Position numbers and translations under genes: made by a program. The notes beneath the pieces were generated by a model, which saw only the letters and a list, made by a program, of their open reading frames with translations, was not told where the DNA came from and did not search any database. This document shows, piece by piece, positions 30,647 through 36,885 of a stretch of 64,000 bases of DNA. Position 1 is the stretch's first letter, and each line of letters starts with the position of its first letter. Source of the DNA: Terriglobia bacterium (GTDB lineage Bacteria; Acidobacteriota; Terriglobia; JAJPHL01; JAPKYU01); NCBI GenBank assembly GCA_965223005.1, contig CBDCVK010000002.1:493075-557074 (forward strand), read 5' to 3'.

Positions 30647-31684
30647 TGGGCTTGATCCGGTTTCGTGGACACGTTCCGAAAGGCGGATACGATGTCCAGA
30701 ATGGGATCAACGAAGGCAGGGAGACGGGCGCGACGACAGTTCAGTGAGGAGTTCCGGATCGGAGCCGTTCGGCTGGTCTTGGATGCGGGCAAGACGGTCG
30801 GCGCCGTCGCGCGCGAGTTGGATCTGACGCCATCGGCCCTGGCGCAGTGGGTGAAGCAGGCACGTGCCGATCGGACGAAGGGCAAGACGGGGCTGACGAC
30901 CGAGGAGCGCGCCGAGCTGGCGCGCCTACGCAAAGACAATCGCGAGCTGCGGATGGAGCGCGACGTCCTAAAAAAAGCCACGGCCTTCTTCGCGAAGGAC
31001 CACCTGTGAAGTTCGCGTGGATCCAGGCGGAGAAGGCCACCTACCCGCTCACGAAGCTCTGCCGCTGGCTCGACGTCACGCGGAGTGGCTTTTACGCCTG
31101 GCGCGCGCGTCCAGAATCAACGCATGCACGCGAGGATCGCCGGCTGACCGTGCTGGTGCGGGCGTCGTTTGAGGCGAGCAAGCAGCGCTACGGCAGCCCG
31201 CGCGTTCACGAGGATCTCCTTGAGCAGGAGGAGCACGTCAGCCGCAAACGGGTCGTGCGCCTGATGCAGAAAGACGGGCTGAAGGCGCGGCGGCGCAAGC
31301 GGTACAAGCTCACCACGATGAGTGATCACGATCAACCGGTGGCGGCCAATCTCCTGGACCGACACTTTGAGGCGGCCGCGCCGAATCAACGGTGGGTCGG
31401 CGACACGACGGAGTTCGTCATCGGCGGCAGCGGGAAGCTCTACCTTGCGGCGATCTTGGATCTGTTCTCCCGGTTCATCGTGGGATGGGCCGTGAGCGCC
31501 GTCAACGACCGCCATCTGACCATCAAGGCGCTCCAGATGGCGCTGAAGCGCCGCTGCCCCGACGCCGGTCTGCTGCACCATTCCGACCAGGGCGGCACCT
31601 ATGCGAGCGAGGACTACCAAGACGTGCTCGACACACACGGTATCATCTGTAGCATGAGCCGCCGGGGCAATTGCTACGACAATG
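30647..31684 (+). mobile_element. IS3 family insertion sequence, 3'-truncated (orfA 30692-31009, orfB via -1 frameshift)
   Basis: TG...TGGACAC left end; orfA RRQFSEEFR..AV, VARELDL; A7G slippery site 30970-30977; orfB YGSPR, WVGDTT, HHSDQG, SMSRRGNCYDNA then cut before the catalytic Glu. Confidence 0.92.
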
Positions 31685-31834
31685 CACCGCATCCGGCAAG
31701 CGTGGTCCAAATCCGACAACGGAACTCCACTGTCGGGACCGGTAGAAATTGACGAGACCTATGTGGGCGGGAGGCGACGCAACATGCCAAGGTCGAAGCG
31801 CAAGGAGCTTGCAGGTCGTGGCCCGGTCGGAAAG
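31682..31834 (+). mobile_element. internal fragment of an IS1595-family transposase
   Basis: HRIRQAW...LSGPVEIDETYVGG...GRGPVGK. Confidence 0.8.
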
Positions 31835-34168
31835 GTCGGGGGAGCTACCTGGATCAGCTCCAACGGCTGGGATTCCGAGCGCAACAAGCCCCAATTCCGT
31901 CTTGGAACCACGCCTCGGATCTTGCTGCATCCGGACGACCCCCAAACTATTTTCCTGGCGCGCAGCTCGGGACTGTGGCGCTCCACGGACGGCGGCGATA
32001 GCTGGTTCCGGCTGGTGGGCGGTGTGGCCACCGACGTCGCCATCCATCCCGACAACCCCAGTCGCATGTTCCTCGCTCTGGGGCGGAACCTGGGAAGCGC
32101 GGGGAATGGGGTCTACCGCTCCGACGACGGCGGCAACACCTGGGGGCGCGTGGCGGGCCTGCCCTTTGGCGAGGAGATCGGCCGGATCAGCCTGGCTGTA
32201 GCACCCAGCAATGGGGCCGTGGTTTACGCGGTGCTGGTCCGTTCCCAGAACCAGCAGCTTCGCGGAGTTTACCGCAGCGTGGACGGGGGGGACTCCTGGA
32301 ATGGGCTGCCTGCGCCACTCTCTCTGTTCGACTCCAACGGTCGCGGCCACGGGTTTTTCGACAATTTTGTCGCTGTGGACCCGCGCGACGCCAACGTGGC
32401 GTATCTGGGCGGCGTGGAGCTTTGGAAAACCATCAACGGCGGGCTGGTCTGGGTCCTGCTGAGCCTGGTGGATCAGCGCATCATCCACGAAGATCAATTC
32501 TCGATTGCCTTCAAACCGGCCGACCCTGATACCGTCTACATCGGCAACGACGGAGGCATCTATAAGACCACCGACGGCGGCGCCACTTGGGCCAGCCTGA
32601 ACAGCGGCTTGCCCATCACCCAGATCAACAGTGTCGCGGTGCATCCGCAAGACCCGCAGATCGCGCTGGCCGGTACCCAGGATCAGGGACTGATCCGCTT
32701 CGCAGGAAGCAGCACTTGGGAGCAGTTGTTCCGCGGCGATGCTGGAGCGGTCATGTTCGACCCGGTCAATCCCAACATCATCCTGACCACAAAGAACCTG
32801 ATGCGGCCACGGCGGTCAGTGGACGGCGGAGCTAGTTTTTCGGACATCAGCGCTGGCATTGATCCTCGCGACCGGGGGGCGTTTTATCCTCCCGTGGTCG
32901 CCTCGCCAGAGAGTCCCGGATTCCTCTACTTCGGAACGCACCGGGTGTGGAATTCCATCGACGGGGGTGCGACCTGGGTGCCGATCAGTCCCGACCTGAC
33001 CGACGGCGGCGCGCTGACCGCGCTGGCGGTCTCTCCTGGTTCCTCCTCCACAATTTGGGCGGGCAGCAGCGATGGGCGGGTCCATGTGTCGACCGGCCTG
33101 GGCTTTTGGCACAGCATCACCGGTCTCCCTAGGCGTTGGGTTACCTCCATCCTGCCTGATCCGCGCAACCCTGGTGTCGTCTACCTCACCGTTTCTGGCT
33201 TCGGCACCGGACACATCTTCAAGATCACCGGAACGGGAAATACCTTGACGGACATCAGCGGCAACCTGCCAAATGCGCCAGCCAACGCGGTGGCGATCGA
33301 CGAGCGCGGCCCGCTTTACGTGGCCACCGACGTGGGCGTATTTCGCAGCGAAGATGGCACCTCGTGGGCTTCGTTCAACGCCGGTTTGCCCAACGCCTTT
33401 GTGACGTCGCTGGCCCTGGACACCAGCTCTGGCACCCTGACGGCCGGCACCTTCGGGCGCAGTGCCTACCGTGGCCAACTGCAGGCCCCCGAGAGCGGGC
33501 CGAACGTGCTGGCGCAAGGTGTGGTCAACTCCGCCACCTATCAGTCGCTGTTGGCGCCGGGCGGCATCGCTTCGCTGTTTGGCACGCAACTGGCGGCGAC
33601 CACCGCGCACAGTTCCGAGCAGCCCCTGCCGACCTCGTTGGAAGGTGTCAGCGTCACGGTCAATGGGGAGCCGGCACCGCTGTTCGTGGTGAGCCCGCTC
33701 CAGATCAATTTCCAGGTCCCGTTTAAGATTGTCGACTCGCAGGCATTGGTTCAGGTAAGCACTACGGAAGGGACGGCGGCCGGTCGGGCTCCGGTACTGT
33801 CGACGAGTCCGGGAATCTTCGACGGCACGATAGCCCATGGCGCCACGGGCACTCCGGTGGATGGAAGCAACCCTGCGGCTCGAGGTGAAATCCTGGTGCT
33901 GTTTGCCACCGGTCTGGGAGCCACTCAGCCGGAGGTGGCCAGCGGCTCCCCCGCACCATCCGATCCCCTCGCCAGAACAGCGATTCCAGTCACTGCCCGC
34001 TTCGGAGACCAACAGGCGCCTGTCCACTTCGCCGGCTTGGCACCGGGCTTTGTCGGCCTCTATCAGGTGAATATTCAGGTTCCGGAAGGTGTGAGCGGCG
34101 ACGTGCCGCTAACCATTCAGGCAGGTGGGCGAAGCAGCAACGCAGTGATCGTTTCCATCCGGCCATGA
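31835..34168 (+). pseudogene. 5'-truncated BNR/Asp-box beta-propeller protein with TIGR03437-like C-terminal domain
   Basis: many S.DGG.SW/TW repeats; GVVNSA.Y...APG.IASLFG...QINFQVP...FAGLAPGFVGLYQVN; native N-terminus replaced by a transposase fragment. Confidence 0.8.
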
Positions 34169-34232
34169 CAAGTTGCGGAGGTTATGTTCTTGCGGCGAAT
34201 CCTGGGGTCTGATACAGTGCGGCTCTAACTCC

Positions 34233-34857
34233 ATGCTTTGGCGGTCAAGCAGCGGAAAGGCAGCGCTGCGGGTCTTGTGTGCGGTGGCGTTTCTGCTGAG
34301 CGCGCCGGGAGCCACGCTGGCTGCCGACCTAGTGGCGGCGCGTGTCCTCAGCGTGAGCGGGCGGGTGTCGCTGGAACGTAAGCCGGATCTATGGGCGGTT
34401 CGCACCGATCAGTTCATCCAACCGGGTGAGGTGATTGTCTCCGGTCCGGACGGCCACGCGGTGCTGGAGTTGGAGGACGGGAGCAATGGCGGTCGAGGAA
34501 GGTCTGCTGGCGGTAGCCCATAAGTTGCTCCCCAGAGGGCGCGAAGTACTGGTGAAGACGGGTGAAGTGCTCGTCGTGCGGCCCACCGAGCCACTCACTT
34601 CCGTTTCGGTCAACAAGGGGCGGCTGGCGGTGCGCATCTTGAGAGTGGCTGTGGAGGCCGCTCTGCGGACAGGGCGCTTAGGCGGAGGCGGTCGCGGGTC
34701 TGCACCCAGCGGCGGTGGCGGTGGTGGCGGCAGCAGCGGGGGCGGGGACTTGGGCCAGGCGCCTCCCCCACCTCCCGATGTGCCCGATGATGACAGCGGC
34801 CCGGGAGCAGGGCAGCCTTTCCAAGCTCCTCCGCCAAAACCAAAAATCAACAAGTAG
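34233..34857 (+). pseudogene. FecR-domain-like secreted protein with internal deletion/frameshift
   Basis: signal peptide, VSG.V, GE.IVSGPDG.A.LELEDGS, then jumps frame at about 34485 to VEEG...V; Gly/Pro tail. Confidence 0.65.
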
Positions 34858-34904
34858 TCCCTGAAGCTACCTCTGCGACCAAGACACCCTCTACTGCTTC
34901 GACA

Positions 34905-35477
34905 TCAGCCGCTCCCAGTGACCGGGAGCGGGCAGTAGGCGTCTTCGGAGAAGCCCTGGGACTCGATGGCCAGGGCATGGTCGAAGCGAGCCCTAAAGTT
35001 CTCCCAGGCGATGGCCGCAGTCAGCTCCACTAGCTGGGCCTCGTTGAACTCGCGGCTCAGTGCGGCGAACAGCGCATCGGGAACCTCAACCGGCGTTTTC
35101 GTCATCGCCACGGCGTATTCGATCACCAGTTTTTCCAGCGGGGAAAATGTGGGGCTGTCTTTGTAGACCGCCAAGTCGCGGAGCTGCTCCTCGGTGATCC
35201 CGGCCGCCCTGCCCACGGCAGAGCCGATGTCAATTCAAAAGGGACAGCCGACCAGCGTCGCCGCCTTGACTTGGGCCAGCGATTTCAACCGCTCCTCCAC
35301 CAGGCGGGAGCGTTCCAGGGCATACTCAAATGCGCCATAGCCATTGAGCAACCAGGTGTGGCGCGCGTACACCGTCAGCGGCTCAGGCACTTTGCCGACC
35401 CGCCGACGCGCGAACCAGTAGGCCAGGCGGGCCAGCAAGCCGGCTTTATCTTCCGCGATTCCGTCAATCCTTGCCAT
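34905..35477 (-). CDS. AhpD/carboxymuconolactone decarboxylase family protein, probable selenoprotein (CxxU)
   Basis: two ORFs in the same frame joined by TGA 35237-35235: LVGCPF*IDIGSAVG; C-terminal LVELTAAIAWENFRARF. Confidence 0.88.
35206..35224 (-). promoter_or_regulatory. candidate bacterial SECIS hairpin
   Basis: GCUCUGCC-GUG-GGCAGGGC stem-loop; loop starts with G, 18 nt after UGA. Confidence 0.7.
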
Positions 35478-35555
35478 TTTCTACCAGGCCATTTTCTACC
35501 AGGGAAGTTGCTTAAACTCCCTTTTATGAAATCGATTTAGGAAATCGATTGAACG

Positions 35556-36885
35556 TCAAATGGTAATAGCTAATTTGTCGCGATCTCTTTCTAGAAGAGT
35601 AAAGCGAATCCTCCTATTTGATCGCCGGTTGATGTCGCGCATCTTCTCTTCGACATCCTTCATGTGGTTCCTTCGGGACGACTTGGAGTTTGGGTTGGAC
35701 GAGGAGGAACTGAACCAGAATCGGCAGCGGCTGCCTGCCTTAGGGTGCGAGCTACGCTCACTGTTCGATCCAATGCGGGACTTTGCGATCGCCTCCAAAA
35801 TCTCAAGATCAGGATTGTGGTGAGCACCATCACCACAGAATACATAGTCGTCCGCGATAACTTTGCGATAAAACTGTTCATCGGTATTATGCTCGGAGCC
35901 ATGGTGGGGAATCTTGAGAAGATTTACGTGCAGAGAGTCGTCCTCATGCCTGCCGATGCGCCTGAAGTGCTTCAGGCCAGCCAGGATGTCTTCCCCATGA
36001 CCGTCACCTGTTAGTAGAAGCGTCTTGTCGTTTTCCTCAACCAGGAACATGAGAGAAGCGAGATTCTGGGTTGTGACAGCGGTGCGCGCGCCCAGTGCAT
36101 TTCCCATTAAAGTACGAGCAGCTTGTAACCCTTCCAGGCTCGACGAGGCCAAAGCCTCTTCATCTCTGCGATGGCGCCTTCGAATCCTATTAAGGTGCTG
36201 CTCAGTGGAATGCTTCTGCAGCCATGCGTTCCACCTCGTCCCGGAGCTTCTGGAGGTCGGCCTCGGACGGACCAAGAATCTGAAAGGCCATACCGCCTAA
36301 CGACAAAGTGCTGCGAGTCCTCGGTCGAAGCATGACCTTGTTGTTTGCCGGCGCGTTTACAGGTATTTTCAACTGCTTGCCACCGACTCGCTTGGTGACC
36401 TCGATGGCATCGGCCATACTTGACGCCAATTCCTGGTACCCATCTGCCAACTCGCCTAGCTTACCGCTAGAAAATCCTCGGAGGACACGTGCGGTCGCCG
36501 CCGAGTTGGCTGCGAATCCGGCCACTGTTCGCGCCAAGTTGCTCGTGAAAGGCATTGTGCCAGATGCCCAGGATCTCCGGCGGGCGCTCAACCTTTGGCT
36601 TGCGGTTCCGCCGTCAGGACTCGGATTCGTTCGGAAGTGTTCATGGACCCGCCACTCGACGAAATCCTCAAGCATCTGGAGAATACCGAAGACGTGATCG
36701 CGATCGACATGTGAAATATAGACTACATCTAGCGGAAGTTTGTCGCGTCGCATTCGTCTCAAGTGTAGGAGCTACGTGGCGTGTATAGGAATCGCGCATG
36801 CCGCCGTCGATTAGCATGTGCTTGCCGTCCGCCCCTTCGAGCAGAAGGCAATCACCCTTATCCGATTGAAAAACTCTAATTTCAC
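35556..36885 (-). pseudogene. MBL-fold (ComEC/Avs1a-like) metallo-hydrolase, multiple frameshifts
   Basis: reassembled across frames: KGDCLLL, LIDGG, SHVDRDH, IWHNAF, NLASLMF, LLTGDG, KIPHHGS, DGAHHNPD; GGAGGTG RBS, GTG 36885. Confidence 0.8.

Follow-up and report, generated by a model that had tools for sequence, protein, structure and literature searches.

A minus-strand AhpD/CMD-family gene with an in-frame UGA in a Terriglobia genome very probably encodes a selenoprotein read through with the help of an in-gene hairpin

Within the 64,000-nucleotide stretch of Terriglobia bacterium DNA analysed here (the window), the minus-strand interval 35477..34905 is very probably one functional gene that encodes a selenoprotein of 190 residues from the AhpD/CMD fold family, in which the UGA at codon 81 is recoded as selenocysteine (Sec) by means of a hairpin. 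If TGA is translated as U, the interval is one reading frame of 190 codons closed by a terminal TGA. The earlier note on this DNA had described two open reading frames lying in the same frame and parted only by a TGA and six sense codons, which together give a 190-residue protein containing GCPF-U-IDIGSA. All of these elements are present, and they lie on the minus strand, which that note did not state. The two listed frames, 35477..35235 (80 residues) and 35216..34905 (103 residues), are separated by the TGA at 35237..35235 and by codons for I-D-I-G-S-A, and the GTG listed as the start of the second frame is the codon for Val87 as well as the loop of the hairpin.

The read-through protein carries the motif G-C-P-F-U-I-D-I-G, in which the CxxU redox motif takes the form C-P-F-U, its first residue being Cys78 (TGT, 35244..35246, minus strand) and its last being encoded by the TGA. 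The ATG start codon at 35475..35477 on the minus strand has an in-frame TAG two codons upstream, and the homologue consensus likewise opens with M-A-R-I. The terminal TGA (34905..34907, minus strand) is a true stop, where homologues end as well, and it is followed by a weak, G.U-rich hairpin of 6 bp alone. Standard gene callers split this gene into its 80-residue and 103-residue pieces, and the same miscall has probably been made in many genomes of Acidobacteriota, Myxococcota, Planctomycetota and other groups.

The column opposite the in-frame TGA (35235..35237, minus strand) was examined in homologues from several sources. When 5.8 billion protein clusters were searched, 1794 matches were obtained, of which 120 full-length ones were listed and aligned; these are 54-68% identical to the window protein and mostly 185-212 residues long. 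Among the 120 listed matches this column holds Cys in 118 and Trp in two, and the Cys78 column holds Cys in 117. Sec forms are under-represented in this database, as it consists of called proteins and gene callers truncate Sec forms. In a search of 60 related genomes, all nine orthologues, which are 45-90% identical to the window protein, have TGA within the same motif. With each species represented by one genome, a scan yielded 80 loci, 76 of them with the family motif, which comprise 57 with TGA and 19 with TGC or TGT, a ratio that is not a prevalence, the scan patterns having been derived from the window's own protein. The remaining four loci consist of two with a Cys codon outside the motif, one with another codon and one in which the column is uncovered. 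The expectation of the earlier note that homologues would have either Cys or TGA at this column is thus borne out. TGA occurs at the column in 66 loci, which according to the genome records belong to Acidobacteriota, Myxococcota, Planctomycetota, Spirochaetota, Pseudomonadota, Actinomycetota (Acidimicrobiia) and Candidatus Tectimicrobiota, seven named phyla, and to relatives.

Some of the copies found in related genomes are of a different character. The orthologue in genome G002 (L028, G002:C179) spans two frames, owing to a frameshift or to an assembly error in a genome that is 62% complete, and the copy in genome G017 (L033, G017:C4), with two TGA codons and one TAA, looks like a pseudogene. 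The relatives also encode a more distant AhpD-type paralogue family (27-32% identical), in which L036, L037, L039 and L041 have TGA at the CxxU position and the canonical His after it; two copies with Cys in its stead (L034 and L035) read C-x-x-C-x-x-x-H there. These relatives thus possess no fewer than two distinct AhpD-like families that contain Sec.

A hairpin at 35224..35206 of the minus strand, within codons 85-91 (G-S-A-V-G-R-A), is the candidate for the bacterial SECIS element. Its 5' arm (35224..35217) and 3' arm (35213..35206) form eight pairs, including one U.G, around a GUG loop (35216..35214) that begins 18 nt after the UGA, in agreement with the 8-bp stem and G-initiated loop described in the earlier note; the hairpin alone has a predicted energy of -14.2 kcal/mol. 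The published bacterial SECIS model has a loop of 3-9 nt, a stem of 4-16 bp, a distance of 16-37 nt from the UGA, a G in the first two loop positions and a minimum free energy of -7.5 kcal/mol or lower (PMC13188914). The window hairpin lies within all of these constraints, with a loop of 3 nt that starts with G and then U, a stem of 8 bp, a spacing of 18 nt and the energy given above.

The hairpin by itself was rejected as evidence for recoding, as 2741 of the 82061 TGA trinucleotides in the genome (3.3%) have behind them a hairpin of this geometry with 8 bp or more. The fold of the surrounding 76 nt is no better than that of shuffled sequences (z-score -0.2), a measure that is uninformative in this GC-rich DNA. 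No Rfam family reaches its gathering score anywhere in the window, a result of little weight, since no bacterial SECIS match was seen. It is the comparison of homologues, rather than the hairpin alone, that raises the observation above chance.

For this comparison we used two gap-free alignments of 57 nt around the codon, one of 66 Sec forms (A1) and one of 19 Cys forms (A2). The cells of the eight-pair stem are in a standard pair in 80.9% of cases in the Sec forms versus 38.2% in the Cys forms, and the observed share of pairing was matched by none of 500 shuffles for the former and by 127 of 500 for the latter, so that pairing in the Cys forms is at chance level. As a control, the 3' partner was slid by 1-3 columns, upon which 36-47% of cells were paired in the Sec forms and 35-47% in the Cys forms. 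Five core pairs of the Sec forms hold in 57-64 of the 64 distinct rows, and 23 cells show changes on both sides; only 16 of the 64 rows keep the outermost pair, and 45 keep the pair closing the loop. Conservation of the stem partly reflects that of the peptide S-A-V-G-R, which the stem encodes. The loop starts with GT in 58 of the 66 Sec forms.

In terms of codon choice, Ser86 is encoded by TCT together with Arg90 by AGA or AGG in 51 of the 66 Sec forms and in none of the 23 Cys forms, a set which here includes four loci of the neighbouring CxxCxDMH subfamily. The peptide S-A-V-G-R is nearly fixed in the Sec forms and variable in the Cys forms, so that the RNA element constrains the protein. 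The covariation and the contrast between Sec and Cys forms support a reading of the hairpin as a SECIS element. The 66 Sec and 19 Cys forms thereby amount to a natural experiment, which shows how a SECIS element located inside a gene constrains both codon choice and protein sequence.

The Sec forms of a subgroup of Acidimicrobiales loci (L108, L110-L113, L115 and L116), which have the motif G-C-x-W-U-[HQ]-D, are without the UCUGCC/GGCAGR hairpin, and their downstream sequences, which differ, fold otherwise. This subgroup may possess a second type of SECIS within the family.

Public sequencing runs provide a further view of the codon. Of 22 listed runs, eight, which come from three studies, contain half or more of the sampled words of the stretch, and we examined assembled contigs from one run of each study and from one RNA run; one of the three studies may have supplied the assembly to which the window belongs. 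In all three studies the TGA codon is spanned by contigs that match the window without a difference (X1 record 1, X4 record 12 and X6 record 21). A contig from a variant strain (X4 record 13) has seven differences, all at listed positions and none of them at 35235-35237. One listed variant, at 35208, turns the U.G pair of the stem into U-A, and a further 20 poorly supported differences in the comparison were not itemised. According to the earlier note, reads showing TGC, TGT or TGG would refute the recoding; in the contigs of the three studies TGA is kept, with no listed difference at the codon. The RNA-library run (X9) yielded a single contig of 162 nt, which covers 34859-35009 only and may be DNA carry-over.

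The DNA on the 5' side of the gene appears to have a different history from the gene itself in this strain. Similarity to a genome of the same genus (G003) ends exactly at 35477/35478, and the window's upstream DNA is common to G002. A 15-nt tandem direct repeat occupies 35503-35489 and 35488-35474 of the minus strand, and its second copy contains the ATG of the gene. These observations suggest that the 5' flank was replaced through a rearrangement or an insertion that reaches as far as the start codon. G003 and the variant strain of the public runs have a GGAGG-type ribosome-binding site at this place, while the window's strain is without GGAGG, and a promoter scan of 34700-35800 found no sigma-70-like promoter. 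The expression level of the gene in this strain is therefore uncertain.

In-frame stops usually mark broken genes, and one could accordingly regard this locus as a pseudogene, or the TGA as a sequencing or assembly error of a Cys codon (TGC or TGT), in which case fragments at most would be made. The rearranged surroundings, with synteny broken at the start codon and possibly frameshifted ORFs upstream, and the damaged copies in G002 and G017 would fit with such decay. Against this, the same TGA is found at the same column in the 66 loci from seven named phyla and relatives, and the contigs of three studies have no listed change at the codon. Both halves of the gene are also 45-90% identical to the orthologues of relatives over the full length with no other stops, and the hairpin with its compensatory changes follows the TGA in TGA forms only. 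We consequently consider decay or error highly improbable, and retain the reading of the locus as a functional selenoprotein gene.

The earlier note had implied that the machinery for Sec insertion would be encoded elsewhere in the genome, and selA, selB, selD and tRNA-Sec were all found. The three protein genes score above their curated cut-offs: selB (C2:349211-351118) at 341 bits, selA (C6:40038-41372) at 551 bits and selD (C10:916629-917552, L010) at 357 bits. The tRNA-Sec gene (C10:520412-520506) matches Rfam RF01852 at 78.5 bits, likewise above cut-off, and aragorn reports the anticodon TCA. The selD gene has one in-frame TGA, located in its N-terminal glycine-rich stretch, at the usual Sec/Cys site of SelD, and this indicates that selD is itself a selenoprotein gene. 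The gene described here would add one more selenoprotein to an acidobacterial genome with a complete Sec system.

A second way to account for an open frame across TGA is that the codon is read outside the Sec system, either under an alternative code as Trp or Gly or by leaky read-through by a near-cognate tRNA (Cys or Trp). The Trp recorded at this column in two of the 120 homologues shows that some gene callers have applied such a code. In this genome, however, 538 of the 1176 open frames with 400 or more codons end in TGA, which indicates that TGA is an ordinary stop elsewhere, and it closes this gene too. The presence of a complete Sec system, the fact that the aligned residue in homologues is a redox-active Cys, and a SECIS-type hairpin that appears to be selected for in TGA forms only also argue against this reading, to which we assign very little probability. 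The proposal of the earlier note that UGA is recoded as Sec thus finds support from several directions, namely the homologue column, the covariation of the hairpin in Sec forms only, the Sec machinery and the contigs.

We assigned the protein to a family by profile and structure comparisons. It matches the Pfam CMD domain (PF02627) at residues 59-120 with 30.9 bits, against a gathering cut-off of 23. The best NCBIfam match is NF053654, 'GroundWater_YciW, YciW-related (seleno)protein', over residues 1-175 of 190 (125.3 bits, E 2.1e-36), which is below the curated cut-off of 310 bits. TIGR01926 (peroxidase-related enzyme; 25.2 bits, cut-off 81.8), NF041047 (GSU3128 family (seleno)protein, 'distant AhpD homolog'; 25.4 bits, cut-off 110) and TIGR00778 (AhpD-core) all score 21-25 bits, below their cut-offs, and no NCBIfam selenoprotein model attains its cut-off on the 190-residue protein.

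The AlphaFold model, built from an alignment of 119 sequences, is all-helical with nine helices and has a mean pLDDT of 93.8. Foldseek matches it with probability 1.00 and TM scores of 0.66-0.83 to AhpD-core proteins, 'peroxidase-related' proteins, the debrominase Bmp8 and PA0269/Atu0492. The top matches are 2prr, 2pfx, 6k40 and Bmp8, of the AhpD-core/peroxidase-related type (query-normalised TM 0.79-0.83, with 0.83 for 2prr), and the closest solved chains by sequence are Atu0492, Pseudomonas aeruginosa AhpD and PA0269 (E about 1e-11). A helix comprising residues 79-91 starts directly after Cys78 in the model, so that the Cys78/Sec81 pair is placed at a helix N-terminus.

It is noticeable that the protein lacks the His with which the canonical CxxCxxxH motif ends. 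The His of Atu0492 aligns with Gly85 of the window protein, and this column holds Gly in 111 and His in three of the 120 homologues. The mechanism of AhpD-like peroxidases is for this reason not simply transferable. Asp83 is invariant in all 120 homologues, and a third cysteine near the C-terminus, Cys182 (34932-34934, minus strand), is kept in at least 90% of the 119 aligned members, although it sits in the less confident tail of the model. Asp83 and Cys182 may take part in place of the canonical His, and Cys182 could be a resolving or relay cysteine.

We propose the following course of events, in line with the established bacterial mechanism of Sec insertion. During translation the UGA at codon 81 would escape being read as a stop. 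The hairpin 18 nt downstream, a UCUGCC/GGCAGR stem extended to 8 bp with a GUG loop, would act as the bacterial SECIS and, by analogy with that mechanism, would recruit SelB-GTP-Sec-tRNA(Sec), so that selenocysteine is inserted. In the folded protein the Cys78-x-x-Sec81 redox pair would then occupy the place of the AhpD-type CxxC pair at the N-terminal end of the helix, with Sec81 as the probable attacking nucleophile and Cys78 presumably resolving the selenenylsulfide. Judging from the fold and from the position of CxxU at the helix N-terminus, the protein is most likely a thiol/selenol oxidoreductase that reduces a peroxide, a peroxiredoxin partner or some other oxidised or halogenated substrate.

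The Sec reading could be right and the enzyme nonetheless not be an antioxidant of the alkylhydroperoxidase type, acting instead in reductive dehalogenation like Bmp8, or as a dedicated disulfide or metalloid reductase. The absence of the canonical AhpD His in nearly all homologues is consistent with such a role, as are the presence of Bmp8 among the best structural matches (TM 0.79-0.81, sequence E 7.5e-5) and the location of the invariant Asp83 and the near-invariant Cys182 outside the classical AhpD site. In addition, a peroxiredoxin gene is not a conserved neighbour. On the other hand, Atu0492, PA0269 and P. aeruginosa AhpD, whose solved structures come nearest in sequence, carry annotations as AhpD or antioxidant proteins, and so do the structural matches 6k40, 7xw1 and 6e8l. 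Nothing in the analysis speaks for any specific substrate, halogenated or otherwise. We therefore regard such a role as rather unlikely, though it deserves consideration, and the wider description as a thiol/selenol oxidoreductase is the one we prefer.

The genomic neighborhood was examined both in the window and across the family. Six neighbouring ORFs in the window comprise one Sortilin/BNR protein, one subtilase S8 and four without a Pfam match; they have no functional link to the gene, and no Pfam match related to aromatic catabolism was seen among these six, such as a pca operon around 4-carboxymuconolactone decarboxylase (CMD), the enzyme after which the Pfam family is called, would have given. 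Across 85 family loci, an all-against-all BLAST comparison of stop-to-stop ORFs within 2.5 kb, which is a crude method, revealed neither a neighbour conserved throughout the family nor a peroxiredoxin gene among conserved neighbours. One neighbour cluster with members at 81 loci was judged an artefact, made up of antisense frames over or near the gene and of spurious ORFs in GC-rich DNA. The next-largest cluster covers 14 loci and is confined to Myxococcota and deltaproteobacterial bins.

Several of the ORFs near the gene show features of their own. The minus-strand ORFs at 35556-36275 (239 residues) and 36202-36762 (186 residues) overlap in different frames and have no Pfam match, and they give the impression of a single gene broken by a frameshift. 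Their H-x-D-x-D-H-like and H-H-G-S-E-H motifs are reminiscent of metallo-beta-lactamase-fold proteins. The plus-strand ORF at 31682-34168 encodes an 828-residue protein with Sortilin/Vps10 (BNR-type) repeats, the first 50 or so residues of which resemble a fragment of an ISXO2-like transposase at 22.7 bits, short of the cut-off of 27. The start as annotated may therefore be chimeric and include what is left of a transposase. Immediately 3' of the selenoprotein gene, the ORFs at 34173-34857 (plus strand) and 34389-34853 (minus strand) overlap each other, have Gly- and Pro-rich low-complexity tails and are without a Pfam match.

The distribution of Sec and Cys forms was followed on a quick, unrooted maximum-likelihood phylogeny from IQ-TREE (LG+G4, 114 rows) that included every fourth database homologue and left out L028, which spans two frames, and L038, L040, L042 and L043, which belong to the CxxCxDMH subfamily. 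The Sec/Cys label requires eight changes on this tree, and seven when residues 78-92 are removed, against a mean of 37 for shuffled labels; the branches marked by a star force at least three changes. Sec forms with the same hairpin are found on both sides of the midpoint root. This suggests that Sec is the old state and that the family reverted to Cys more than once, where the direction from Sec to Cys is inferred from an unrooted tree.

Taken further, these observations could describe a distinct and as yet unnamed clade of AhpD-fold selenoproteins of about 190 residues, characterised by CxxU with an invariant Asp, the lack of the catalytic His and an extra C-terminal Cys. The SECIS of this clade, UCUGCC-GUN-GGCAGR, would be almost frozen across at least seven phyla and would dictate the peptide S-A-V-G-R; Sec would be ancestral, and the Cys clades would be repeated reversions followed by decay of the SECIS. 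We offer this broader scenario tentatively, as plausible but somewhat short of what we would favour.

Compared with bacterial AhpD, PA0269 and Atu0492 (PDB 1knc, 7xw1, 2ijc and 2gmy), the window protein shares the helical AhpD core and the placement of the redox motif, CxxC in those proteins, at a helix start. The similarity to the Atu0492/PA0269 type is the closer one (sequence E about 1e-11, target-normalised TM 0.87-0.92), while Mycobacterium tuberculosis AhpD is a weak match (E 0.75, TM 0.43). These proteins have C-x-x-C-x-x-x-H, whereas the window protein has Gly at the His position and Sec as the second Cys. The SECIS element of Escherichia coli fdhF is a hairpin that follows the UGA immediately within the coding region, and its apical loop, some 20 nt away from that codon, contains a G-U step. 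The window hairpin likewise lies in the coding region after the UGA and has G-U in its loop, but it has no sequence similarity to the fdhF element and differs from it in a loop of only 3-5 nt and in having no evident bulged U.

The statement of the earlier note that Sec-containing AhpD-like proteins were already on record is correct, as they have been catalogued since 2005 in two metagenomic surveys (PMC1088965, PMC2398784). In the Sargasso Sea data, 27 AhpD-like sequences (COG2128, CxxU) and four CMD-domain sequences (PF02627, CxxU) are given (PMC1088965). The GOS survey gives 299 selenoproteins and 902 Cys homologues for AhpD-like 1, which is placed among the most abundant marine selenoprotein families, and 70 for AhpD-like 2 (PMC2398784). 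AhpD-like and CMD selenoproteins are also listed in later reviews and in a database paper (PMC9312934, PMC13188914, PMC13326102), and TIGR01926 serves to define the 'AhpD-like protein' in a 2026 review (PMC13188914).

With the AhpD-like (COG2128/YciW type) and CMD-like selenoproteins the window gene has in common the CMD/AhpD fold, a CxxU motif whose Sec replaces the second Cys, the existence of Cys homologues, and a SECIS just 3' of the UGA with a G in a small apical loop. The clade considered here, which has C-P/V-F-U-[IL]-D-I-G-S-A-V-G-R in proteins of about 190 residues without the His, was compared with the catalogued subfamilies by their descriptions in those papers and may be among them. 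NF053654 is itself a model for selenoproteins of the same fold, and the window protein is a relative of that family rather than a member. The gene thus opens no new question, AhpD-like CxxU selenoproteins having long been catalogued. It is almost certainly a Sec gene that adds to this known group, and its further interest lies in an unusually clear contrast between the SECIS region of Sec and Cys forms and in its place within a clade that lacks the His and escapes the current NCBIfam models.
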